Source: Octopus vulgaris (Eukaryota). Taken from it: a DNA stretch of 64,000 nt. The position numbers and the translations under genes are program-made. Within the stretch, counting starts at the first letter, position 1. Each line of letters starts with the position of its first letter. Below are positions 2,915 through 63,151 of this stretch, one piece after another. The stretch is from the NCBI GenBank assembly GCA_951406725.2, contig OX597825.1, forward strand, positions 83,762,001-83,826,000, in the 5' to 3' direction. A model generated the notes under the pieces. The model ran no database searches. It was not told the DNA's origin and saw only the letters and a list, made by a program, of their open reading frames with translations.

Positions 2915-3004
2915 CACTACAGCTGTTTCAAACGAGTTTTGTTTTTCTATTTTGATTAATAGAGTCATTACATCATGCGAAAATAAAAACACTTTCGTCA
3001 GGTG
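2915..3004 (-). ncRNA. Minimal type-I hammerhead ribozyme motif, intact core
   Basis: Minus strand: cac CTGACGA aagtgttttt...aaaactcgttt GAAA CAGCTG TA gtg; stem I cac/gtg; palindromic stem III ACAGCTGT; GUA triplet. Confidence 0.7.
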
Positions 3005-3240
3005 ATTACACATGAATTTTCTGGCTAACGTCGGTTAAAGAGTAAGAATTCATTGGCTGAAGCTAGCCAGGGAATCTTGAAGTGCCACATAATGTTGTTT
3101 CTTGGAATGTTTCTTTTTAAATGTTTAATTTGTGAATACTCGCCTGATCAACAAGAAAAGCTCAGCTACTGTCAATTGTTTATATATATATATACACATA
3201 TATATATATAGATAGATAGATAGAGAGAGAGAGAGGGGGG

Positions 3241-12600: not shown

Positions 12601-13814
12601 GTATATCAGTGTCATATCGTCGTTGTTGTATTGGGTATGCCACACCCAAGGCCACCAAATGTTCAAGCAGGAACATAACAAAGGTTTTCTATTAAGATTT
12701 GTGATTAAATTAATAGGTAAGGTTAATATTTATCACGAATTTGCCATTTTCGATGGCAGCGCAGTCTTAGCACACGCGGAACATACGCCCTTGATGTGTG
12801 TGTGTGCGCGCATGCGTCCAATAGGTTATCATAGACTTTCTTTCTAACACAATTTATCCAAAAGGCCTTGTCTTACTCAAAGCTATAAGACGTAGAAAGT
12901 AACCATCATCTGAGAATGTTATATTATAACCAGAATCTCACCGATGCGAGTCTAACTCTTTAAACATTTGGCAACACTTCCATCCATATTTTCTAAATTC
13001 TGAACATGGTGCTTACAGAATGACTGTAACTCATTTCGAATTGCAGCTCATTTAATAATAGAAAAGAAAAAGAAGCAAAGACAGAACTCTATTTCCAGAA
13101 AGAAAAAAAGTCGTTTTATCTTTTTTGATTTTACTTTTGTAATTTTATTTTTCTCTTCATTAATTCAAGCTTTGCTGCAACATCGCTCTAATTATGCTGT
13201 AAAAAATATTTACCAGATAATCCATTGTAAGCGAAGAATAAGGCCAAAAATCACGCAGAAGTGAGAAAAAAATGATAGAAGATAAAGAGAGATAGGGAAA
13301 AGGAGAGAATGAAGTGTACAGAGAGATTAAGAAAAAACAATAAGGAACAGATTAAGAAAAAGACACAAAATGAGATCGGTTGAAAATATGAGTTAAAAAC
13401 AATGCGAGATGGAGAAGAGTTAATTCAAATATATGATGACTATCTCTACCATGCTAAAAAAGAAAAAAAGGTGGTCTATAGTTCACCACAATAAGCAAAG
13501 GTTTCATAGAAATTACTGAGGTTTTTCTTAAATACTACACCGTTTGCACCTACCAGTGACTGTTCAGCTTGTCACTCATTGCAGTAAAACTCACTGGAAA
13601 CAAAAGCCCGTGCTTGGTCATCCGACATACTGGAAATAGCAGCTAAATCCCTTTCTAATCGCACTCTGCTTTGTTATAAAAGACGTGTATATTGTTTTAT
13701 GCAGACTAAGAAACACAGTGGCTGGGGGAAAATACCCTAGATATGATTTAAATCTAACCTTTGTAGATTATATTCAACTCACGTAGCATGATGCGATAGT
13801 TATTAGCCTCAAGG

Positions 13815-14040
13815 GCGAAATGCTTAGCGGTATTTCGTCTGCCGTTACGTTCTGAGTTCAAATTCCGCCGAGGTCGACTTTGCCTTTCATCCTTTCGGGG
13901 TCAATTAAATAAGTACCAGTTACGCACTGGGGTCGATATAATCGACTTAATCCGTTTGTCTGTCCTTGTTTGTCCCCCTCTGTGTTTAGCTCCTTGTGGG
14001 TAGTAAAGTAATAGGTATTTCTTCTTCTTCTGGCGTTACG
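13815..14040 (+). mobile_element. 5'-truncated Nin-like SINE (tail type A) with 16-bp TSD
   Basis: B-box gagttcaaattcc; Nin-like core gcctttcatcctttcggggtc; gttattagNctcaagg at 13799, 14040 and 14059. Confidence 0.9.
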
Positions 14041-17364: not shown

Positions 17365-19960
17365 GTATATGTATGTATATATATATGCATTTATATCAAT
17401 ATCTATATATATATATATATTCTCTATTGTATATATTTACATATGTGTGTGTGAGCGTATGCTTCTATATGTATGTATATATATATAAGCATAAATGTAA
17501 ATATTATGTGTGTGTATATTTATGCATGTATATGTGTGTAAATATATACATATATGAATTATGCGCGCACGGACACAACACACACAACACACACACATGC
17601 GCGCGCACAAAAATATGGCAAATATTATGGCTAAGAACAATAAATTAAATTTTTTAAACTTTTTTGGAATAAAGTACCATATTTTAGTCTTTAATGAAAA
17701 CAAACTCTCCACCCTCTTTCTCTCTCTTTCTCTCCCACTCTCTCTCACTCTCTCTTTCTCTCTCTCTCTCTCCCACTCTCTCTTTCTTTCTCTCTCTGTC
17801 CCCCTCTTTCTCTATCTTTGTATTCCTTCTTCATTAATTTCTGCATTTTTTTGTATTTTTCTCATATATTTTGTTCTACAATTTTACAACCTTGCTTTCA
17901 AATTTTAATTTTATATTTTATCTCATTATATTTTAAGTCCGTCTCGAAGTAATTTTCTTTGTTTTAAGAATTACAATTTTTTTTTAAATATTTTTTATTG
18001 ATATTTATATTTTCATATTTATTTTATTTTTTATTTTTTTCCACTGATTGTTTGAAGTCAATTTTCTGTTTGGCACGGATTAAGTAATTGATTTCATGTT
18101 ATTTTTAACTGTTGGTAGTCTGCGCTGATATTTATTTATTTTTTTTTTCATATTTATGTTTTTTTTTAATTTTATTTTATTTGATTCTATATCGTGCTAA
18201 CACAAATGTAGGTTTATATTTGCAATTTCTTTATATCTTATTAAACTTTTATTACTTTGGCATTTCCATTAGCGAATATGCCTTAAGATCAACACCACAA
18301 ATGCCTTATAGTTGTAATATAGTAAATCTTGAGTGTTTCTTCTTTAGCGGCTGGCTGTATGCTTTATAGAAAAAAAAAATAGAGACAGTTTTTTTTTTCT
18401 CTCGACGTTAACATTTTAACGTAAAATCAAATTAAGTATTTTTTATGTGTGGTTCTTGTTTTTTGTTTTTGTTTTGTTTTGTTTAAACTTTAAATTAAGT
18501 GACAGACAGAATCCGTGACCTGGTTTAGCACGGCTAACTAACCTATGAAAGCGTTCAGTGGATTTTACGCAGTTAGCAGTGTTTGAACCCCAGAATCTGA
18601 TCTCGTGGTTCAAGATTATGATCATGGATGTTAAGTTGTTTTTTTTAATTGTGCAAGCATGGATTTTGTGCTTAAATCGTTTACATTGCAACCATGTGGA
18701 GCTAGGTTCGATCCCATTATACAGTATCTTCTACCTCCCAGTTCTCGTGAGGCATCACTCAAAGCCTCTAACGCCATAGCAATTCATCCGAAACTAAAGC
18801 GGGCATCCGTGATGGACCGATTCGCCATCGAACAGATACTGATGTACAATGTGGCGCTCCATCTTTTCAGGGTGGAACTGGGGCTGGTAGTTCTTAAGAC
18901 CACTGCCAGGTGGCAATACTTGATTCTGGCGTAAGTTTTAGACTAACTCAAATACATACGTGTCCTACTGGAGCTAGATTTCTGCCCGATTTATTCTACG
19001 ATGTATCGCATTAGATAGAAGTTGTTACGAATGGATGTGCTGGGGATTATACAAATTTGCACGTCTTCGAGAACACTACAGGTGACTAACAACAACCTTT
19101 TTAAGAGAGCCTTTTCTAAAACTTCCATTTCTGTCTTAAGGAGAATTATAGACTCTGAAAATGTTCTTGTTAGGATATTTTCTCAGCAACATCCCCAGTC
19201 GTTGGCTGACATGACTGCGAACGCTCCCAAGCTCGCAGAATACTAGACATATGATTAAATGCATAATAACTGACTTCAATTGTCATAAATATTACGCACA
19301 ACTTCGTCTAATATTACCTTCTCATTTTAAAGAAGCAGTGTTAATCTGAGAGAAATTGACTGTTACGTCATGCCGTTCAAGCGACCATGTATAGGCTCGC
19401 TACTTGGTTGATGGATGTAAATAACAATAATTAACGAAGGGTTTGTGTTAGGGTACATCAAATCGCTGCTCCAAACTTAGATGTCTTGTTTCTGTAGCGG
19501 ACTATAAACGTAAATGTTCCCCCTTTTTAAAAAGTAACTTGCTAATTCTACGGTAAAAATATGTATGGTGTAATGTCTAAGAGGTTGTAGTTACCTCTGG
19601 CTGGAACATTGAACATCAGTGCGCTTTGTAAGAACTGAACACAGGTTAACAACTAAGAACTATACCACTAACAACACTAATACCTATAGAGGACGTGTTG
19701 TATAATCTTTACAGTTGTGTAGAATGCTTTACATTCTTTGTTCCGACCCTCCTTGCTTTGAGTTCAAATCCTGCTGAAGTTAATTTGACTTTCATTATTT
19801 CAGAGTTGATAACAAATATCAATCCATTATAGAGGAATTTGTGGAATTGTCCGAACGTGTGATCAGATAACTTGTGGTACCTGCTCCGGCTTTCTGAGTT
19901 CTGAGTTCAACTCTCCTCGGTGGTATAAATTAATCCGTCGCCTAGCTTAATACCCCCAAA

Positions 19961-20190
19961 AGGCGACGAGCTGGCAGAAACGTTAGCACGCCGGCTGAAA
20001 TGCTTTGCGATATTTCATTTGCCACTACGTTCTGAGTTCAAATTCCGCCGAGGTCGACTTTGCCTTTCATCCTTTCGAGGTCGATTAAATAAGTATCATT
20101 TCTGCACTGGGGTCGATATAATCGACTTAATCTGTTTGTCTGTCCTTGTTTGTCCTCTCTGTGTTTAGCCCCTTGTGGGTAGTAAAGAAA
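19961..20190 (+). mobile_element. Full-length Nin-like tRNA-derived SINE (type A) with 17-bp TSD
   Basis: A-box tggcagaaacgtt, B-box gagttcaaattcc; TSD tagcttaatacccccaa at 19943-19959 and 20191-20207. Confidence 0.92.
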
Positions 20191-21317
20191 TAGCTTAATA
20201 CCCCCAACAAATATTATGACTACTTTTCATGGCGTCCCTTCTGTTGCAAGCATTCGGGACACGACTCCTATTTCAGAAAATCTCCCTCACTACATCCTTT
20301 CTCTCCCACCAGTCTCGGAAATCTGTAAAATAGCCTATGAGCAGTGCCCTAGCTAAATGACAAAGAAAGAAATATATGGGCTTTGGGACCTTATGCTAAT
20401 GTGACAAATTAATATTAGTTCTTATCTACATTAACCGAACTTTTCATCTTATTCGTGTATCCTCTTGTTATTGCTTTGTTAACTTTAATGTTGAACTGCT
20501 TCTACGAGTGTCCGGTGATTAAGCAAAGGTAGTCGACATTTTCCATTCCACTTCATTTATTTGACTCGTAATTGGATCACAAGAGCAGGAAGTGGCAATC
20601 TATTGAATTACTAAGTTGCTTTTACAGTAAACGGTGCAATTAATATTGTTTCCCCTTCGTTATTTCAACCGTATGCTTAATTTGTTGACTAACGTAGACT
20701 AGACTTCAAGCTCGTCTGTCTACACAGCTTATTTCCGTGTGTAATTGGAGAAGTCCCAAGGGAGTGAACTTCTGTGTTTTCTAAACCACGTTGAGCGGGT
20801 CTGGCGAAGCAGTAAAACATGGTTAATGTTGAAATGTTGAAATGAACGCAATTACTGAAGATTTATTAAATGTTTTATTGCAAAGATAAATTGTGAATAT
20901 GGGGAGTGGAAACAGACGTATCATTTTTTTATTATTATTTTTCTGGCAGCTAATAGCATTCGATGATTTTTAGTTGCGCTGGATACGCACATATATACAC
21001 GACACACACCTATATATATACATATATATATATGTATATGTATGTATATATATATATTATATATATATATATATATATATGTGTATGTATATGTATGTAT
21101 ATATGTATGTATGTATATATGTATGTATGCATGTACGTATATATATATATATATATATATACATACATACATACATACATACATACTATTCATATATACA
21201 TATATGTATGCATAAACGTAAGCATAGGCATAATATATATACGTATATATATGTATATATATCAATCTATATATAAAGAGAGAGAGGGGGTGAGAGATGG
21301 TTCGTCAGGCAGGCAGG

Positions 21318-22012: not shown

Positions 22013-22250
22013 ATACCTATTTCATTACTACCCACAAGGGGCTCAACACAGAGGGGACAAACAAGGACAGACAAACTGATGAAGTCGATTATATCGACGC
22101 CAGTGCGTAACTGGTACTTATTTAATAGACCCCGAAAGGATGAAAGGCAAAGTCGATCGGCGGAATTTGAACTCAGAACTCAACGACAGACGAAATACGG
22201 CTACGCATTTCGCCCGGAGTGCTAACGGTTCTGCCAGCTCGCCGCCTTAA
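22013..22250 (-). mobile_element. Full-length Nin-like SINE (type A)
   Basis: Reverse complement of the 19961 copy. Confidence 0.9.
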
Positions 22251-26691: not shown

Positions 26692-27117
26692 AGGCGGTGA
26701 GCTGGTAGAAACGTTTATCGACCCCGTCTGTCTTTACGTTCTCAGTCCAAATTCCGCCGAGGTCGAGTTTGCCTTTCATTCTTTCGGGGTTGATAAATTA
26801 AGTACCAGTTGTGTAGTGGAGTTGATCTATTCGACTGCCTCCCTCCCCCAAAATTTACGGCCTTGTGCCTATAGCAGAAAGGCGGCGAGCTGGCAGAAAC
26901 GTTTGCACGCCGGGCGAAATGCTTAGCGGTATTTCGTTTGCCGCTACATTCTGAGTTCAAATACCGCTGAGGTCGACTTTGCCTTTCATCCTTTCGGGGT
27001 CGATTAAATAAGTACCAGTTACGCACTGGGGTCGATATAATCGACTTAATCCGTTTGTCTGTCCTTGTTTGTCCTCTCTGTGTTTAGCCCCTTGTGGGTA
27101 GTAAAGAAATAGGTATT
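26692..27117 (+). mobile_element. Tandem Nin-like SINEs: type B followed directly by type A
   Basis: Second head ggcggcgagctggcag at 26881 abuts the first tail tgtgcctatagcagaaa. Confidence 0.9.
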
Positions 27118-27129
27118 AGTATTTTTACT

Positions 27130-34279: not shown

Positions 34280-34558
34280 ATTTGTATACTCAGCTGCATA
34301 CTATAAAAATAAGGTAATTTGGAAAAGAAGCAAGGAGTTATAAAACCATTTATGTAAATAGCAACGTACTAAAATTATAAGAATTTAGAATATAGAAGAA
34401 TATAAAAAGAATGTGAATATATAACATTAAGGGTCAAAATAAATTGAGAAATATAAAATATATTGACATATAGTGGGTTTATGAAATCATATGTCCCGTA
34501 GGGGAATTAGAGAGTATAATATAAAGATCTATATAAATTATATATACATATATATAAT

Positions 34559-34826
34559 TATTCTGTTGTATGTGGGGAGAGTCATTCTCTTTTGGTGCCT
34601 TATAATTTAACACACTCACCGGTAAAATTTCCACTTATTTCTTGTTTATTCTTCTAAAATTTTCGTTGCATCTTGTAAAATTTTTGAACTTTTCAATATT
34701 GAAAAGGTTGCAAGACGCAATGAAACTTTAGAAAAATAAAAAAGAAATAAGTGGAAATTTTACCGGTGAGTGTGTTAAATTATAAGGCACCAAAAGAGAA
34801 TGACTCACCCCACATACAACAGAATA
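34559..34826. repeat. Fold-back inverted repeat, ~130-bp arms, no spacer, with U3-A8 hammerhead-like motifs at the centre
   Basis: tattctgttgtatgtgggg...ttttcaa TA ttgaaaa...ccccacatacaacagaata; + arm TTGAAAA g GTTGC aagac GCAAT GAAA. Confidence 0.9.
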
Positions 34827-34964
34827 TGCTTCAACACAAACCAAATCCTAAAAGGAAATATATATATATTAATAATAATAATATAACAAAAGAACGAATG
34901 AGGCCTCGATATTATGTAAAATAGAGGAATTTATCTATAAATATAATATGTGACAATTAGCTGG

Positions 34965-35039
34965 TTGTCTTATTAAAACTCGGAGTTTCGGATACAGGGA
35001 CTGAAGTCTGCTCTGGCATCACATCAGTTATTAAGACAA
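34965..35039 (-). ncRNA. Hammerhead motif with A9U change
   Basis: Minus: ttgtcttaataa CTGATGT gatgccag...ctgtatcc GAAA CTCCGAG TT ttaataagacaa; ~12-bp stem I with two mismatches. Confidence 0.7.
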
Positions 35040-35049
35040 AACGCTACTT

Positions 35050-35124
35050 TTGTCTTAATAACTGATGAGATGCCGGAGCAGACTTCATCCCCGGTATCCG
35101 ACACTCTGAGTTTTATTATTACAA
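35050..35124 (+). ncRNA. Hammerhead motif with A14C change
   Basis: ttgtcttaataa CTGATGA GATGCCGG...CCGGTATC c GACA CTCTGAG TT ttattattacaa. Confidence 0.7.
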
Positions 35125-35244
35125 CCAACTAATTGTCATATATATATATATATATATATATAGGGACAGAGAGAGGGAGAGACAATGAGACATGGAAGGA
35201 GGAGGTTCAATCCATATTATATCACGATTATATTATATATTTTT

Positions 35245-35412
35245 TATGCTCTGGACACAAGGCCCGAAATTTTGGGGGAGGTGTCAGTCGATTAGATCAA
35301 CCCCAGTACGCAACTAGTACTTAATTTATCGACCTCCAAAGGATGAAAGACAACGTCAACCTTGGCGGAATTTGAACTCAGAACGTAAAGACACACAAAA
35401 TACCGCTAAGCA
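35245..35412 (-). mobile_element. 5'-truncated Nin-like SINE (type B)
   Basis: cacaaggcccgaaattttgggg...ggcggaatttgaactcagaacg. Confidence 0.85.
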
Positions 35413-35424
35413 GTTGATTAAAGT

Positions 35425-36440
35425 TGATTACGCATTCTGGATTGGAAGTTTCGAGATGTTGAACCTTTATAGGTAAAGCTGTTAGCATTAGTTGTTATAT
35501 TACACTTGCAAACTATATTATTAACTAAACAGTTCCTATTAATCGGACAAGTGTTCGCTGCTGAGACGCTTCCGAAATAAGAAAAGCCGCTGGAAAACCG
35601 ATTATAACAGCAACTCCATCGATTCCTAGGGATATCTGAAGAAGGAATTTTTATTCCAAAATATATCAGATTATGGATGATTAAATTACATCGTTTGTAT
35701 TATAGTGCATTGTTGTGCAATTCAAAACAGTTTATTCTTTACAAACAATATTGACATACAAATCGTTTAATATACTTTGCAGTATATTATGGTTGCAAAT
35801 AGCTGCCACGCACCTACTGATACTGTCATCAATATGCAGTTCCTTGTTGTTGATAATGATAGCCTTAATCGAGCTGGCGTACATAGAACCACTGGAGCCA
35901 AGACTGAGGAAGGTCCAATTAATCGTACAGGTATTTGTGTCATGACAGTTGCACATTCTAGGAGCAACTAGGCTAGGACTATCACCGTTGCTATATAAGC
36001 TGTATGAAGTATGAAGACTAGTATAACTTGAAGTATTAAGACAAATACTGATGCCCTAAAATTGTAATAAATCTGATATGATTGAATTTCATGCATCTGC
36101 GCATGTTCATTTAAACTATGAGCATCCTGCTACTGTTAGCAATAATAATGATGCTAGCCATAGAAGTACTGTTATTGAATCTTCAAGTCATTCTATTAGT
36201 CTTAATACTTCATCTAGCTTATATAATAATGGTGATAGTTCTTACCTGGTTTCACCTAGAATGTGCAACTGTCGTGACACGAACACTTGTACGATTAATA
36301 GGAACTGTTTAGGTAATAATATAGTTTGCAAGTGTAATATAACAACTAATGCTAACAGCTTTACCTATAAAGGTTCAGCATCTCGAAACTTCCAATCCAG
36401 AATGCGTAATCACCTTTTATTTTTTAAAGGATTCTTTTCA
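35425..36440. pseudogene. Rearranged Penelope-like (Neptune-type) GIY-YIG remnants in both orientations
   Basis: + strand CNCRDTNTCTINRNCLGNNIVCKCNITTNANSFTYKGSASRNFQSRMRNH (CNCR..CP..G.CL..VVY...YIG...FK.R..NH pattern); 35425-35557 is an inverted copy of 36280-36412; ~35912-35996 is a diverged inverted copy of ~36221-36305. Confidence 0.8.
35631..35672 (+). ncRNA. Minimal hammerhead motif with G12A change, inside the PLE remnant
   Basis: gatat CTGAAGA a GGAAT tttt ATTCC AAAA TATA TC agatt; palindromic ATATAT; change consistent with CpG decay of CCGAAA. Confidence 0.65.
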
Positions 36441-39750: not shown

Positions 39751-40196
39751 TACGACGGGCTTCTTTCAGTTTCCGTCTACCAAATCCATTCACAAGGCTT
39801 TGGTCGGCCCGAGGCTATATTAGAAGATACTTAGAAGACGTTTAAGGCAGCGAGCTGGTTTAAGGCGCGAGCTGGCTTAAGGCGGCGAGCTGGCAGAAAC
39901 GTTAGCACGCCGGGCGAAATGCGTAGCCGTATTTCGTCTGCAGTTACGTTCTGAGTTCAAATTCTGCCGAGGTCGACTTTGCCCTTCATCCTTTCGGGGT
40001 CGATAAATTAAGTACCAGTTACACACTGGGGTCGATGGAATCGACTTAATCCCTTTGTCTGTCCTTGTTTGCCCCCTCTGTGTTTAGCCCCTTGTGGGTA
40101 GTAAAGAAATATATATTAGAAGACACTTGCTCGAGGTGCCACGCAGTGGGACTGAACCCAGAAACATGTGGTTCGTAAGCAAGCTACTTACCACAC
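39452..40196 (-). mobile_element. CORE-like tRNA SINE with internal microsatellite, interrupted by a nested SINE
   Basis: Minus: gtgtggtaagtagcttgc...gggttcagtcccactgcgtggcacctcgagcaagtgtcttc...(TA)n(TG)n...gcatggccgcagtcaaatgactgaaac; collinear with 58722-59233. Confidence 0.88.
39841..40111 (+). mobile_element. Nested Nin-like SINE (type A) with triplicated 5' end and 17-bp TSD
   Basis: TSD tatattagaagaYactt at 39816 and 40112. Confidence 0.92.
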
Positions 40197-48464: not shown

Positions 48465-49350
48465 TACGCCAAACTGGCAGAAGCTTTAGCGCGTCAGACG
48501 AAATGTTTGTCGATATTTCTTCCCACGTTTTATATTCTGAGTTCAGTCCTGCAGAAGTCAACTTTGTCATTCGTCCTTTCGGGTTCGATAAAAGAAAGTA
48601 CCAGTGCGATACTGGAGTCGATTTGATCGACTATTCCCTTCCCGCAAAATGTCAAACCCTTTGCCTAGAGTAGAAAGAATTATTAACACTACTAAGTACA
48701 TTGAGGCGGCGAGCTGGCAGAATCGCTAGCACGCCGGGCGAAATGCTTAGCGGTATTTCGTCTGCGTTACGTTCTGAGTTCAAATTCCGCTGAGGTCGAC
48801 TTTGTCTTTCCTCCTTTCGGGGTCGATAAATTAAATACCAGTTACGCATTGGGGTCGATGTAATCGTCTATCCTCCTCCTCCTCCAAATTTCAGGCCTTG
48901 CGCTTATCGTAGAAAGGATTATTATTAAGGCGGCGAGCTGGCAGAATCGTTAGCACGCTGGACGAAATGCTTAGCAGTATTTCGTCCGTCACGATGTTCT
49001 GAGTTCAAATTCCGCTGAGGTCGACTTTGCCTTTCATGCATTCGGGGTCGATAAGATAAAGTACAACTTAAGTCATGGGTCGATAGCATCAATTATCCCC
49101 CTCTTCAAAACTGCTGGCTTTGAGTAAAAATTTGAAGCAATTATTACGTGCGGTAGATTGGTCGAATCGTTAGACTATCGTGCAAAATGCCCTGCAGTAT
49201 TTTGTCTACTTCTTTAAGTTTTATGTTCAAAACCCACCTTGATCATCTTTACCTCTCACCTTTTAACGCTTGATAATCAGTTAAGCATTGCGGCCGATTC
49301 TATCGCTAACTTCTTCCCATCAAATTGTTTTCCTTGTACCTAAAGCAGAT
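48465..49350 (+). mobile_element. Head-to-tail array of four Nin-like SINEs
   Basis: Heads near 48465, 48705, 48929 and 49148; the first three end in attatt; a fifth truncated head lies at 49551-49595. Confidence 0.85.
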
Positions 49351-49595: not shown

Positions 49596-50319
49596 AGAGC
49601 AGGAAAATTACAACAAAAATCCTCACAGAAGATATACGTCCAAACTAATATTGTATTAATAGACATGTGTATAAATATATAAAGTATGGTTATTTAAAAG
49701 GTTTAAATGTTTGAAACATCTTACGACCGTTTCGTGACTCCATTACCCTTAGAAATCGGATCTAAAATTGTAGTCAATCGAATGCAATTTAAAAATATAT
49801 GAAAAAGATGTTTAAAGATGCTGTTTAAAAGTTACTGGCGTAGATATGCGTTGGTACAATTTTGTGCTAAAAATTTTGAAGAAGAATATACATCCGTGGT
49901 AAAATACTCTGCGGTAATCCGTAATGGCTGTATGTAATATAAATCCCATAATTCTGTTCTCTTCAATGTGTGAGCCATAAATACAGAAAATGAAAATAAT
50001 TAAATTTATACCTTTTATATTTGTATATTTACAACTGTATTTACAACATCTTCAATCATCTTTTCATATATTTTTAAATAGCATTCGATTGACTACACGG
50101 AATTTTACCCTCTTTCTCTCTGACGAGTGGATGTATTACCTAATAATGATAATCAGTTTTAGATCCCATTTCTAAGAGTAATACATGCACGAAACGATCG
50201 TAAGATATTTTAAACTTTTAAATAATCCTACTTTATATATTTATACATCTATCTATTAATACAATATTATTGTGCACGTATATCTTTTGTGATGACCTTT
50301 GAAGTAATTTTCCTGCTCT
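49596..50319. repeat. Diverged inverted repeat (49596-~49830 / ~50035-50319) carrying a hammerhead
   Basis: agagcaggaaaattac...gtagtcaatcgaatgc versus gcattcgattgactac...gtaattttcctgctct. Confidence 0.88.
50115..50207 (+). ncRNA. Type-I hammerhead motif, intact core, long stem II
   Basis: tctct CTGACGA GTG g ATGTATTAC (loop) GTAATACAT g CAC GAAA CGATCG TA agata; palindrome ACGATCGT; predicted cut after 50202. Confidence 0.8.
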
Positions 50320-53984: not shown

Positions 53985-54018
<34 letters not shown>

Positions 54019-54164
54019 TATGTATATTTATGTATATATATGTATATATATGTATATATGTTTATATATGTATATATATTTATGTATATATATGTATATA
54101 TATGTATATATAAGTATGTATATATGTATGTATATATATGTATATGTATATATATATGTATATA

Positions 54165-54229
<65 letters not shown>

Positions 54230-54268
54230 GTGTATATATATATGTATATGTGTGTATGTATATATGTG

Positions 54269-54305
<37 letters not shown>

Positions 54306-54350
54306 TTGTGTGCGTGTGTGTGTATGTATGTGTATATATATGTATATGTG
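53825..54350. repeat. Compound (TA)/(TG) tract
   Basis: Direct reading. Confidence 0.95.
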
Positions 54351-54999
54351 CGTGTGAGGTTGATTCGCTCATTTTCAAAGCCCTGTTTAGTGAAAATTGA
54401 GATTGACGTGTTTCGGAATGGTTAATAACATCTATTTTGACTCCATTGTATAAAGGCTGTGGCGCCTACATTTCATCACATTCGAACCCGCATTATCGTA
54501 TTTACGATTTCAAGTGACTTTTGTTAGGGCAATATATAATCAAAAGTTTCCAAAATACTAAAAAGATCTTCAAACGCTGCTTTTCAATATCGGCGCCTTA
54601 CAATGAATAACTGTCATGGCGTCGGTTTGTTTATAAACAGAAAAGAGCGGAAAATCGTCTACGAGATTATTGCACACGCTCGGGAATTTCGATCTACAGG
54701 GACAATGTTCTGTGTATGGAGAGGATTTTCCGTTTATTAATTTTCGTAAATAAACGCTTCTATTTTATTCTATTTTAGACGAAACAGCATACATACAAAA
54801 GCAATGTTTGCATTCAATATGTAATGTCATCAGCATCATTATCATCATCATCATCACTCTTCATAATCGTCATCATCAGCATCAGTATTATCATCATCAG
54901 CATCACTCATCATCATCATCATCATCATAGTCATTATCATCATCATTACTGCTAAGGTGACGTGCTGGGTAGGGCACTTCCAACAAAAGACCGACGAAT

Positions 55000-55610
55000 G
55001 GGGCACATCCTGAAAAAGTCGGAGGGAAGGGAAGGAAGGACTTTTCCGGGAAAGGTACGTGGAAGGGGGTTGTCCTGGAAAACTCCGAGAGGAGGAAAGA
55101 CTTTTCCAGGAAAGATCGAGGGGTACTTCATGGAAAAGGCCAAGGAAGGGGAGGACTCTGGAAAAGTCCAAGGAGGGGAAGAGGGAAGTACTTCCTGGAA
55201 AACTCTGAAGATGAGGTAGGAAAGGAAGGACATACTGGAAAAGGGGTACGCCCTGGAAAAATCCAAGGAGGAGGAAGGAGATGAAGATCTTTCTAGAAAA
55301 GTCCAAGGAGGAGGAGGAAAGATTTCCTGGAAATCTCCAAAGATGGATCCACTTCCTGAAAAAGTCTAAGGAGGGGGAGGAATACCTTCTTGCAAATGTC
55401 CGAGGAGAGGGAAGGGGACGAACGGAGGAAGGACTTCTTCGAAGAGTCCGAGGAAAGGAGCACATCCTGGAGACATCCGAAGGGGTGGAAGAGGAGGAAG
55501 TCCAAGGAGGGGAAAGAAGGACTTCTTGGCAATGTCCAAGGTAGGGGAGGGAGGACCTCCTGGAAAACACCAAGGAGGGCTGCACTTCCTAGAAAAGTCC
55601 AATGGGAGGG
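55000..55610. repeat. Degenerate purine-rich ~33-bp minisatellite (~18 units)
   Basis: Recurring cttcctggaaaagtccaaggagggg-like unit. Confidence 0.75.
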
Positions 55611-55876
55611 TAAGTGTCCGAAGACGGTGTAGGGAGGAATAAAACGTATATATTTCCGTTTTATTTATTATTTTGCACATTACTTAATCATTGTTATATG
55701 TTTTATCTTATATGTGATCTTTCTATAATATATTTTTCTAAATGGTATAATCTAAATTGGCAAAATGACCATTCCGAAATATAACAATACATGTATCTAA
55801 ATATATATATATAGGCTATGAGAGGTAATGGTATCACAGCCTTGGTTTTTTTATCTCATTACGGAAAAAATTATAT

Positions 55877-55938
<62 letters not shown>

Positions 55939-56090
55939 GAAGGCTTCCACACAGTTTTCCTCAGCCAAGTTCAGTCGGTCGCAAAACATTAGTCTGCAAG
56001 AAGCTATAGAAGACATTTGCCTTAAGCAATATTTGAAAGGTAATGTACGAGCGCACGTGCGTGTGTATGTGTTTGTCCTCCGTGTATGAA

Positions 56091-56122
<32 letters not shown>

Positions 56123-56309
56123 TGTGTGTGTGTGTCTGTATGTGTGTGTGTGTGCGTGTACTGGTGCATTCGTACCTTTGAGTTTCTTGCAAGGACGTAA
56201 AAAAAACTGGAAGTAAATAAAAGGGAAATAAAATCATTTCTAAGACGTTGAAAGGGAATTTTGTGGATGTCTGTACCTAATGAGTGTTTGTTAGTGTATG
56301 AGTATATGG

Positions 56310-56970
56310 ATGAGTGAGTGAGAGAGTGATTGAGTGAGAGAGTGAGTGAGTGAGTGAGTGAGTGAGTGAGTGAGTGAGAGAGTTAATAAATGAGTCAGTG
56401 AGTGAGTGAATGAATGAATGAGTGAATGAGTGAATGAGAGAGTGAGTAAATGAATGAATGAATGAATGAATGAGTGAATGAGTGAATGAGAGAGTGAGTA
56501 AATGAATGAATGAATGAATGAATGAGTGAATGAGTGAGTGAGTGAATGAATGAGTGAATGAATGAGTGAATTAATGAGTGAGTGAATGAATGAATGAATG
56601 AATGAGTGAATGAGTGAGTGAGTGAATGAATGAGTGAATGAATGAGTGAGTGAATGAATGAATGAATGAATGAGTGAATGAGTGAGTGAGTGAATGAATG
56701 AGTGAATGAATGAGTGAGTGAATGAATGAATGAGTGAATGAATGAGTGAGTGAATTAATGAGTGAGTGAATGAATGAATGAATGAGTGAATGAGTGAGTG
56801 AATGAGTGAGTGAGTGAGTGAATGAATGAATGAATGAATGAGTGAGTGAATGAATGAATGAATGAATGAGTGAATGAGTGAGTGAATGAGTGAGTAAGTG
56901 AGTGAGTGAGTGAATGAATGAATGAATGAATTAGTGAATGAATGAGTGAGTGGTAAGTCAGTCAGTCAGT
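56310..56970. repeat. (GAGT)/(GAAT)n tract
   Basis: Direct reading. Confidence 0.97.
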
Positions 56971-58503
56971 GCAGGAAGGAGGAAGACATTCTAAAATAAC
57001 GAGTAGGACAGAAATTATCAGAGAAAAAAAGAGACGGCCGATATGTTAATGTATACAAAGAGAGGTTTTGAAAAAATACTTTCTCTTACAGTCACAAGGA
57101 GGGACTTTTAGGCGGTCACAGCGATCTCCGTATTCAGTTATTTTATTGCCCTTGCTCTGGTGAAAGGAAAAGTCGAAGATGAAGGTAGACGCAATGCTGA
57201 TAAACATTTCGTCTTGTCCGGCATGTTTACGATGTTGCCAGCTCACTGTCCTGGTTTTGAATAAGAATAAAAGGAATTAAATAACCACGGTACGAAGAAA
57301 ACGAGGAGAACCTCGAGAAACAGGCGGACACCGTGCAGGGAGAGCACAGGGCTTGAGAGGCTGGAGATCATGTCAGATTGTACGAGATGCAACAAGAGGA
57401 AGATGAGCTAAATATAGTGGAAATCAGTTAGGCTATATGAAGAGACATTTAAGAAAATTGAGATGAGAAATGGAGAGATGCGGAGAGGTGTGTGGGAGGA
57501 GGGAGGGAGTGAAGGAAAGAACCAGGAAGTGAGAGAGTGAGTGTGTGTAGAGGTGAGTGTGTATGTCAGTGATTGAGTGAGTGGTTAGGTGACTGAGAAA
57601 GTGAATGACTGAGTGAGTGAGAGAGAGAGGGAGAAATTGTGTGAGAAAGAGAGTGAGTGAATGATTATTAGATTTAGTAAGAGAGGGATTATTAAATTTA
57701 GTAAGGGAGTGATTATAAGAGATAGTAAGGGAGTGAATGAATAAGTGAGTGAGTGAGTGAGAAATAAAATGGCAGCTAACAATGAAGAAAGAGAAAGAAT
57801 GTGAACAGAAAGAAGATGCGGAGAAGTACCTGGAGGGCAAAAATATAACTGAAGAACAAAGGATAAGAAGCAGAGAATAAATCAGATACAGAATGGTAAT
57901 AAGGTTTCTTAATGAGACTCGTGCAAAAATATCAAAGATTTAGAATCTAAGATAAAGAGTTGCTGCAAGATTAGAAAACGTAAGTAAAGAACGAAGCAAT
58001 GGACGGCGAAGAAATGGCAGAATTAGAGCTGCTGAGAGAACAGGAAATGAAGGCAAAGGGGAGATAATTGCTAGGAGATTATTATAATGCTGAGAACATG
58101 AGGTAAACACAGCCATGCTGGGTATAATACATAATTAATTTTATCATTTTCTGAATCAAATACCGAACGATAATCCTGTGGAAAACTTATTGAACTATAT
58201 CAATACTTACTTGCTGATAAATGCAGCTGTGATGATTTATTGAATAACTGCTGTCGTGAAGATTAGATCCTTCAATATCGCCGTTTTCTGGAATACTTGA
58301 AACGCATTATGAGTTACCTGTTTGTGTTTTCTTTTTTGTAACAAGATTAGATCTTACAACGCAGCACTTATGTCGACTTCAATGCACCAACCTTCCAGCC
58401 TTCCACCCCTAATATTAATGAACATGCACGAAATAATAGTAATTTACTTCCAGGAAAGGGGATTACAGCATCACTTTAATATGTTGCTTCGTATATAACA
58501 TAG

Positions 58504-60010: not shown

Positions 60011-60381
60011 ACCATGATGAAAGCTGTCCTTCAGATCAAGCCCGATCGATCAGACTAATGATCAAAAACGTTCCAGCCGGAAGCACAATGTCTTTTGGTA
60101 TACCATGTCTCCTTCCCTTTTCTAAAGCAGTAAGATGTTATTTGAGGGAGATTAGGCTAGTAATTCTAGGAGACCGATTGACCACGTAAAGGCTTCTACT
60201 TAGGACAGAACAGAATTCTCGGATCGAAATTTCGACACAAAACCGTCTCCTGTTAGTTCGATATGATATCTACTTGTTTTTCTGCTGATCCATTCAAAGT
60301 ACCTGCGTGTTTCGATTTTCTATTTTCTTTCATGAGATATATTTCTTTGTGAAATTTCTTTTCAGTAAACGAAACAGATAA

Positions 60382-60800
60382 AGGCGGTGAGCTTGCACAA
60401 TCGTTACGGCGCCGGGCAAAATGTCCAGTGGCATTTCGTCCGACTTACATTCTTAAGTTCAAATTTCGTCAAGGGCGACTTTGCCTTTCGTCCTTTCGAG
60501 GTCGATAAAATAAGTGACTTCTAATCGACTTATCTCCTCCCCTGATATTGCTGGCCACGTGCCAGAATTTGATACCAATGTATTGAACAGATAAAGGTGG
60601 CGAGCAGACAGAATCGTTAGCGCACCGGGCAAAAATGCTTAGCGGCATTTTCTCCGTCTCTACGTTCTGAGTTCAAATTCCGCTGAGGTCGTCTTTGTCA
60701 ATAATTTTAGGGTCAATAAAATAAGTACCAGCTGAAGAATGGGGTCGATGTAATCGATCAGCCCTCGAAACTGTTGGCCTAGTGTCAAAATTTGAAACCA
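60382..60800 (+). mobile_element. Two tandem Nin-like SINEs, each preceded by aacagataaa
   Basis: Heads at ~60383 and ~60596; aacagataaa at 60373 and 60586 is a probable TSD. Confidence 0.85.
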
Positions 60801-61391
60801 ATCTACTAAACGGATACAGAATACTGAGGCCATGAAATAATTTTTTTTTGTACAATTGCTGAAAAACAAACATCAATGAACAACACAATATGCATCAACA
60901 GATCGTTGAAGAACCTATATTTTTAGTGAATGAAAAGGAAATCTAATGCAACTGCCTTCTTTACCTACACAAGAGCAAGAATACATAAATGTCACAGCAG
61001 ACTATTTTTTCTAAATATTTAATGTTCCAACTTAATATTTTTCTCAAGACATTAAATGCCATAAGATATTTTTCTAAAAACTCATAAATGTCCACAATAT
61101 ACTGTTTTTCTAAAGATACCAATCTAAAAAATACCATTTTTTATTGATACATATAAATTTCCTGATATTCGAGGTTTCTAAAGGCGACAAGATATTTTAT
61201 CTTTCTTTTGGCATCATAATATAACATTATTTAAGACACGTTTTAATGTAAAGTCACAATATTGCATCGTTTTAAGGGCGTCATAGCATGTTAATTTTCA
61301 AATACAGTTTTCCATTATTGTTCATGGACGTCAGAGCTTGTTATTTCTTTAAAGACTTCATAATACTTCATTGTTTTAAGGAAGTCATTGT

Positions 61392-63151
61392 TTACAGACG
61401 TTAGAATATGATTACAGATGTTACAATATGATTACAGACATCACAATATGATTACAGATGTCACAATATGATTACAGACTTTACAATATGATTATAGATG
61501 TCACAATATGATTACAGATGTCACAATATGATTACAGCCGTTACAATATGATTACAGATGTCACAATATGATTACAGACATCACAATATGATTACAGATG
61601 TCACAATATGATTACATACCTTACAATATGATTACAGATGTCACAATATGATTACAGATGTCACAATATGATTACAGACCTTACAATATGATTACAGATG
61701 TCACAATATGATTACATATGTTACAATATGATTACAGACGTTACAATATGATTACAGACATCACAATATGATTACAGATGTCACAATATGATTACAGAAC
61801 TTATAATATGATTACAGATGTCACAATATGATTACAGATGTCACAATATGATTACAGATGTCACAATATGATTACAGCCGTTACAATATGATTACAGATG
61901 TCACAATATGATTACAGACGTTACAATATGATTACAGACGTAACAATATGATTCCAGACGTTACAATATGATTACAGATGTCACAATATGATTACAGACG
62001 TTAACCATATGATTACAGACGTTACAATATGATTACAGATGTCACAATATGATTACAGACGTTACGATATGATTACAGACGTTACAATATGATTACAGAC
62101 GTTACAATATGATTCCAGACGTTACAATATGATTACAGATGTCACAATATGATTACAGATGTCACAATATGATTACAGACGTTACGATATGATTACAGAC
62201 GTTACAATATGATTACAGACGTTACAATATGATTACAGACGTTACAATATGATTACAGACGTTACGATATGATTACAGACGTTACAATATTATTACAGAC
62301 GTTAAAATATGATTCCAGACGTTACAATATGATTAGGGATGTCACAATATGATTACAGACGTTACAATATGATTACAGACGTTACAATATGATTACAGAT
62401 GTCACAATATGATTACATACGTTACAATATGATTACAGACGTTACAATATGATTACAGACGTTACAATATGATTACAGATGTCGCAATATGATTACAGAC
62501 GTTACAATATGATTCCAGACGTTACAATATGATTACAGACGTTACAATATGATTCCAGACGTTACAATATGATTCCAGACGTTACAATATGAATACAGAT
62601 GTCACAATATGATTACAGCCGTTACAATATGATTACAGACGTTACAATATGATTACATACGTTACAATATGATTACAGATGTCACAATATGATTACAGAC
62701 GTTACAATATGATTACAGACGTTACAATATGATTACAGACGTTACGATATGATTACAGACGTTACAATATGAATACAGACGTTACGATATGATTACAGAT
62801 GTCACAATATGATTACAGATGTCACAATATGATTACAGACGTTACAATATGATTCCAGACGTTACAATATGATTCCAGACGTTACAATATGAATACAGAT
62901 GTCACAATATGATTACAGCCGTTACAATATGATTACAGACGTTACAATATGATTACAGACGTTACAATATGATTACAGATGTCACAATATGATTACAGAC
63001 GTTACAATATGATTACAGACGTTACAATATGATTACAGACGTTACGATATGATTACAGACGTTACAATATGAATACAGACGTTACGATATGATTACAGAT
63101 GTCACAATATGATTACAGATGTCACAATATGATTACAGACGTCATAATATG
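61392..63151. repeat. 20-bp tandem array, ~88 units, consensus GTYACAATATGATTACAGAY
   Basis: Uninterrupted 20-bp period with one 1-bp insertion near 62005; no spacers. Confidence 0.98.

Follow-up and report, generated by a model that had tools for sequence, protein, structure and literature searches.

How did a long hairpin with hammerhead-like sequence at its axis arise in an AT-rich stretch of the Octopus vulgaris genome, and is it a ribozyme locus in its own right or the debris of a transposon? In the 64,000-nt stretch of DNA analysed here (the window), a preliminary description had singled out positions 34559-34826 as a spacerless 268-bp hairpin whose axis is a hammerhead variant with a U3-A8 instead of a C3-G8 pair. 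The hairpin itself is real. Self-BLAST recovered the palindrome over 278 columns at 87.05% identity (E 1.5e-93), with the arms 92% identical to one another over 126 columns, and no unrelated spacer lies between them; its RNA is calculated to fold at -177.8 kcal/mol (z -27.7), with none of 200 shuffles equally stable. The centre, however, is asymmetric: a perfect 18-bp palindrome at 34689-34706 (axis 34697/34698), which holds both U3-A8-like cores, is centred 5 nt rightward of where the outer arms have their axis (34692.5), beside a 9-nt surplus on the left arm (34559-34697, - strand). Nor does 268 bp describe the full feature, as the right arm (34698-34826, + strand) runs on for another 31 nt (34827-34857) before an (AT)n tract is reached, while the left arm ends straight in AT-rich, microsatellite-like repeats (~34540-34558). 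This one-sided extension, the outer boundary of which is fixed solely by the onset of (AT)n, is composed of 74% A+C, compared to 49% in the window.

The two arms have not diverged evenly. Nine difference events fall in the inner 45 nt and only one in the outer 84 (Fisher p 3.2e-4, or 1.7e-3 when the first 13 nt are left out), a clustering at the tip which poorly fits simple uniform decay; among the differences between the arms is a G/A change inside an A-run of the U3-A8 arm. An AT microsatellite borders the hairpin on both sides, and a target-site duplication cannot be told apart there, the longest repeat common to the flanks being (AT)n of 9 nt. The palindrome starts and ends with TA, but within AT-rich DNA. 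An extra segment of the left arm (34676-34687, - strand) is complementary at 11 of 12 positions to 34651-34662, the GAAA and helix III side of the same arm, which it masks in the predicted fold; this near-complementarity suggests a templated insertion at the junction.

Both strands carry the 8-nt core motif at the axis, as had been described, each copy 1 nt from the local axis (34699 on the + strand and 34696 on the - strand). The continuation reported for the + arm is also as stated: in the motif at 34699-34729, the core (34699-34705) precedes a single unpaired G at position 9.1, a 5-bp helix II (34707-34721, with 34707-34711 pairing to 34717-34721 and including a G10.1-U11.1 wobble) and GAAA at 34722-34725. 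On the - arm (34654-34698, core at 34696) the matching helix II had been read across an ellipsis; the omitted 13 nt replace the 4-nt 5' strand of this helix, which is broken by the 9-nt surplus and is absent. Stem I, predicted earlier as cta/tag, is missing altogether from the + arm and amounts to two A-U pairs on the - arm, where the third pair is not present. Positions 15.2/16.2 are C/U and non-complementary on the + arm, which together with the absence of helix I makes it fail a full type I descriptor. The - arm has complementary A/U at these positions and is the sole UUGANAA site of seven in the window with two contiguous helix I pairs, both A-U; it is also one of the seven to match a relaxed descriptor, through a bulged helix II, and matches no stricter one.

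Against the make-up of the minimal type I hammerheads of Penelope-like elements (PLEs), the locus thus offers a core box with a paired 3-8 position and a GAAA box (as one effective copy), a helix II starting from G10.1 after an unpaired base on the + arm but not on the - arm, and complementary 15.2/16.2 followed by U16.1-H17 on the - arm but not on the + arm. In the thermodynamic model, helix II of the + arm forms with a pair probability of 0.78-0.88 when the arm is folded alone and of 0.0 within the whole hairpin, whereas G10.1-C11.1 of the - arm has a pair probability of 0.0009 and its hammerhead fold costs +3.8 kcal/mol. None of the three Rfam matches to 34696-34770 at E up to 10 was a hammerhead, and the + arm motif stays below the gathering threshold of Hammerhead_1 (RF00163). 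The 3-4-bp helix III closed by A15.1-U16.1 that marks the Hydra clade is not seen either, A replacing U16.1 in both arms in this register. Two other readings of the axis, one with a Hydra-type helix III and one as a standard core that has suffered one-base deletions, were set aside, as each calls for more changes than minimal U3-A8 does.

Shuffling the arm gave a compact half-motif starting within its first 20 nt in 6 of 200,000 cases and at any position of the arm in 19 of 50,000; over the whole window, one real half-motif stands against 0.15 on average in 40 shuffles. All of these are flattering figures, as the descriptor was drawn after the motif had been seen. A looser UUGANAA scan of the window discriminated poorly (four real sites against 2.3 in 30 shuffles). 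We conclude that the axis motif probably descends from a hammerhead, the two arms being defective in complementary ways, and that neither arm is a complete ribozyme; the motif is predicted by these folds to be inactive at this locus. The hammerhead descent claimed in the preliminary description is supported, and the U3-A8 reading comes down to one effective copy of the core.

With good but not complete confidence, we regard the hairpin as a heavily 5'-truncated PLE insertion, in which an inverted and a direct terminal repeat stand head-to-head and are followed by a 31-nt tail, and the axis motif is likely the minimal type I hammerhead ribozyme of the source element. PLE insertions are often 5'-truncated, have an adjacent inverted truncated copy and bear a 30-40-bp tail at one end (PMC8557442, in the parts consulted), and they are biased to microsatellites and (TA)n (PMC8557442; PMC8969392). 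Correspondingly, the inverted 5'-truncated copy at 34559-34697, which has no tail, adjoins a direct terminal repeat at 34698-34826 that may be the 3' part of a pLTR, and the putative tail is found at one end only, 31 nt long and followed by (AT)n. We infer PLE membership from this arrangement. Octopus vulgaris has PLEs, and these have been active in recent times (PMC13282606).

The closest anatomical parallel comes from Adineta vaga. Its Penelope copies bear a tail of 31 bp, inverted and direct pLTRs that overlap by 15 bp, and palindromes of 18 and 38 bp at pLTR 5' ends (PMC3846280). Like the Pen2/Pen3 EN+ insertions of that species (scheme in PMC8557442), the hairpin combines inverted and direct terminal repeats, an 18-bp junction palindrome, a 31-nt one-sided tail and an AT-rich or (TA)n site; unlike them it has no ORF, only ~130 nt per arm and no resolvable target-site duplication. 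The A. vaga pLTR holds 12 aa of the ORF, or 22 with the tail; the possible ORF start of the hairpin, an ATG at 34800 (34800-34859, + strand), gives 9 codons within the arm and 19 to the tail end. For this frame no convincing protein homologue emerged, a word search with a 42-aa arm frame yielding no candidate. The single phmmer match of a 31-aa frame (E 5.5e-4), an internally repetitive protein that belongs to no Pfam family, was dismissed as uninformative. A consensus-like 5' splice donor is present in the distal arm at 34767-34772. Introns are possible in PLEs.

In the anole element PAc, a Poseidon element of Anolis, the ORF begins at helix II and reverse transcription (RT) starts in an AC-rich stem-loop 111-118 nt further on, with the tail lying between two RT start sites (PMC11167929). 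Counted in the same way from helix II, the arm of the hairpin ends at +120 and its AC-rich tail at +151, so that PAc and the hairpin agree closely in the distance to the RT start (+111-118) and share an AC-rich tail. They differ in that PAc has a C3-G8 core and a tested, protein-assisted ribozyme. The PAc protein cuts AT-rich DNA, cutting and extending both strands, and insertion in vitro proceeds without a need for ribozyme cleavage (same source). Two other comparisons are instructive. The hammerheads of Hydra-clade PLEs, among them Hydra-1 from Octopus bimaculoides (PMC8557442, File S2), share the (TA)n target with the hairpin, which has no U16.1 in either arm in that register, and U3-A8 is found in none of the File S2 rows consulted. 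Non-LTR retrozymes (bioRxiv 10.64898/2026.07.22.740005) resemble the hairpin in being non-coding, in carrying a type I hammerhead and in their proposed derivation from PLEs, but they consist of head-to-tail tandem units with complete hammerheads; the single head-to-head pair and incomplete motifs of the hairpin do not fit this assignment.

No family consensus, as had been proposed, could be built: BLAST and nhmmer found the two arms and no other copy of them in the 64-kb window (the next nhmmer match had E 3). An exact 29-nt search returned no match among the genomes of bacteria and archaea, as expected of animal DNA. Distinctive motifs of the arm or of its neighbours had no match in the parts searched of the supplementary PLE consensuses of PMC8557442; the 8-nt core was counted eight times among them, the two occurrences displayed both lying inside long consensus sequences, and an 11-nt motif matching a GC-rich sequence was taken as chance. 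Among 150 of the 237 stop-free stretches in the window scanned against Pfam, no family rose above the cut-off and no RT or GIY-YIG domain was detected, the four weak matches below the cut-off being to neither; the lack of such an ORF is expected of a truncated copy. The window, with a GC content of 25-42% per 2 kb, is filled with microsatellites and has no tRNA gene, and the miRNA-like hairpin matches of an Rfam scan were below threshold among the best 150 of 284. It reads as non-coding animal DNA. Elsewhere in it we observed a dispersed, SINE-like high-copy family of 70-95% identity (13813-14019, 19959-20193, 22013-22250, 26725-27119, 35242-35415, 39877-40119, 48474-49146, 60373-60819 and others), a minisatellite with a 20-nt period (61249-62192) and, at 54001-58000, low-complexity repeats with a strong G skew that reaches 0.64.

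Whether U3-A8 is a genuine core is a separate question from that of PLE origin. The preliminary description was right that U3-A8 is an established natural covariation (PMC3088659, in part), and it is known in PLEs, with ~1,300 matches in those of Schistosoma mansoni (PMC4209133). In the alignment of the latter paper, as far as it was accessible, U3-A8 occupies two of 56 rows, U3-G8 one and C3-G8 the other 53, and U3 appears in none of three mollusc rows; one of the two U3-A8 rows, S. mansoni family 4, has a 7-nt core identical to that of the hairpin. A literature search covering few subscription papers located the covariation only in these two sources. As G-U at 10.1/11.1 is found in several published rows, the wobble of the + arm is no defect, and an unpaired base between 9 and 10.1 is likewise published for PLE hammerheads (same paper). 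Helix I of 2 bp occurs in six rows, all G-C. Besides the shared core, the S. mansoni Cercyon hammerheads (Sm3/Sm4, PMC4209133, in excerpt) resemble the hairpin in the unpaired base at 9.1, the G at 10.1 and the opposite-strand pairing, and its - arm in the minimal helix III. The hairpin has G at 9.1 where Cercyon has H, and its helix I is absent or made up of two A-U pairs, compared to 3-5 bp there. In schistosomes, minimal hammerheads paired on opposite strands lie 100-700 bp apart, in contrast to cores 2 nt apart here, in a different animal lineage.

Because both cores of the hairpin are inside one 18-bp palindrome, they count as one effective observation. Given a hammerhead origin, we incline, by our own estimate and by no wide measure, to U3-A8 as the core of the parent family. 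Possible, but clearly less likely, is the same PLE origin with a standard C3-G8 parent, in which U3-A8 would have come about through decay and junction repair and been copied to both strands by the palindrome (our weighting here is its share of all outcomes, this being a sub-case of the PLE explanation). The single-observation status of the cores speaks for such decay, as do the nine differences in the inner 45 nt, including the G/A change in an A-run, the kind of change that would turn a standard core to A8; so do the 53 of 56 published C3-G8 rows and the fact that core positions are decaying in each arm of a neighbouring palindrome. On the other hand, two changes would be required that happen to preserve the 3-8 pair, S. 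mansoni family 4 has this very 7-nt core in the published alignment, and the insertion looks young, its outer arms differing at one of 84 positions.

That neighbouring palindrome (34929-35161, 84% identity, spacer-poor) has C3-G8 hammerhead cores on both strands (+ 35062 and - 35027), 17 nt from its axis, with an 11-pair helix I on the - arm, a long helix I starting at the axis and one core defect per arm. Its 4-bp helix III with a 1-nt loop is of the Hydra-clade type (PMC8557442, File S2, rows listed). A possible tail of this palindrome is directed at the (AT)n tract that the hairpin's tail also faces. A third inverted repeat (49596-50319, ~720 nt) contains a complete standard C3-G8 core at 50120, ~180 nt from its centre, in a hammerhead (50114-50208, + strand) with a 12-pair, long-looped helix II and a palindromic helix III; Rfam Hammerhead_1 scored the repeat at 18.5 bits (E 0.032), below the threshold of 34. 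The inverted copy within this repeat lacks 58 nt including the first core box, and the hammerhead at 50114-50208 is, of those in the window, the most promising for a test of cleavage. The U3 of the hairpin lies 1 nt from the inversion point; with distances from core to axis of 1, 17 and ~180 nt, two of the three at the 5' edge of the ribozyme, there is no fixed rule that places the axis at the core. Other structures of the window include an inverted repeat at 35911-36306 (arms of ~125 nt, 82%, spacer of ~147 nt), in which motif scans found no hammerhead core and which is enclosed by a 141-nt inverted duplication (35417-35557 and 36280-36420, 96% identity, ~720 nt apart). There is also a standard hammerhead core at 3001 (~2915-3005, - strand) with a palindromic helix III, a 3-bp helix I and a weak helix II, possibly a solo remnant.

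Starting from the observed anatomy (the palindrome, the offset 18-bp palindrome, the one-sided extension, the AT flanks and the incomplete helices), we infer a sequence of nicking, cDNA synthesis and joining. The GIY-YIG endonuclease of the element would nick both strands of AT-rich DNA, and its reverse transcriptase would copy the element RNA from two adjacent internal starts, one with the tail and one without, back across the hammerhead. Short annealing or fold-back could then join these two short cDNAs head-to-head, leaving the junction palindrome and removing the 5' strand of helix I, and the inner arm would afterwards accumulate most of the differences. This bias may stem from the repair of a hairpin that had extruded, from conversion acting on the outer arms, from the use of two different template copies, or from wrong bases at the tip. 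The ribozyme of the parent element may have acted as a dimer or with help from protein. A transcript running through both arms of the present locus would form a 130-bp duplex that buries the hammerhead motif.

Cleavage by a type I hammerhead falls 3' of its core. Self-cleavage would thus have removed the core, which is retained, and cannot have set the axis. A bolder extension of the PLE reading, which we hold to be doubtful, is that the hairpin stems from an undescribed and recently active cephalopod-like PLE family with a U3-A8 consensus, whose insertions would favour the hammerhead's 5' edge as their point of inversion; the fold, and not cleavage, would set the point of cDNA stop or fold-back, and 130-bp dsRNA hairpins would be seeded genome-wide.

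Explanations outside a truncated PLE fare worse. It is unlikely that a DNA element of the foldback or MITE type, spacerless and with a hammerhead-like centre by chance, inserted at TA and that the 31-nt extension is host DNA. Such an element would account for the long terminal inverted repeats without coding sequence, and MITEs are part of the octopus annotation (PMC13282606, in part); the TA at both ends of the palindrome would also suit it, within AT-rich DNA as these are, and the hairpin is single-copy in the window. Against such an element, the half-motif at the start of the arm is rare by chance (the 6 of 200,000 given above, with its flattering descriptor), the tail length and junction palindrome agree with PLEs, and neighbouring inverted repeats hold standard hammerhead cores. 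Rather improbable, too, is a functional locus, whether as a U3-A8 ribozyme that is active or as a non-autonomous palindromic unit that is mobile and has its axis set by the ribozyme. The + arm has no helix I and a non-complementary 15.2/16.2, the fold of the - arm is unfavourable, and the helix II that is predicted to form on the isolated + arm (pair probability ~0.8) is abolished in the full hairpin. Both G-U at 10.1/11.1 and a 2-bp helix I can be found among published rows, although all six of these short helices are G-C, and PLE ribozymes can be protein-assisted (PMC11167929, excerpts); against this, only a single copy exists in 64 kb.

We think it very improbable that the structure is an artefact of assembly or sequencing, either a fold-back chimera or a real palindrome with base errors at its tip. 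A chimera would mirror everything, so the 9-nt indel and nine further changes between the arms, the unrelated flanks and the tail on one arm only all count against it; the points in its favour are that PLE inverted structures are noted as troublesome for assemblies (PMC8557442, in the parts consulted) and that the differences concentrate at the tip, several of them in A-runs. A gene for a miRNA or endo-siRNA hairpin is scarcely credible. The hairpin is very stable and Rfam miRNA models do match it, but such matches are expected of any long hairpin, all 43 of the local ones are below their gathering scores, and the best are to plant miRNA families; any small RNA that a PLE hairpin gave rise to would count as a by-product.

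Each feature of the hairpin has a published precedent, and we take it for ordinary transposon debris and no new RNA enzyme, the expected by-product of a PLE inverted end plus tail, a larger context missed by the preliminary description. On present evidence it adds one to the Penelope-type remnants, and its value is modest and practical. Scans for CUGANGA miss U3-A8 families; if a true U3-A8 family exists here, the known range of the covariation would be widened beyond schistosome PLEs, to a second animal lineage with a U3-A8 core. In <300 bp, minimal head-to-head insertions of this kind preserve the two RT starts together with the junction, and a genome-wide set of them would bear on the formation of PLE inverted repeats and on any part that the hammerhead may play in it.
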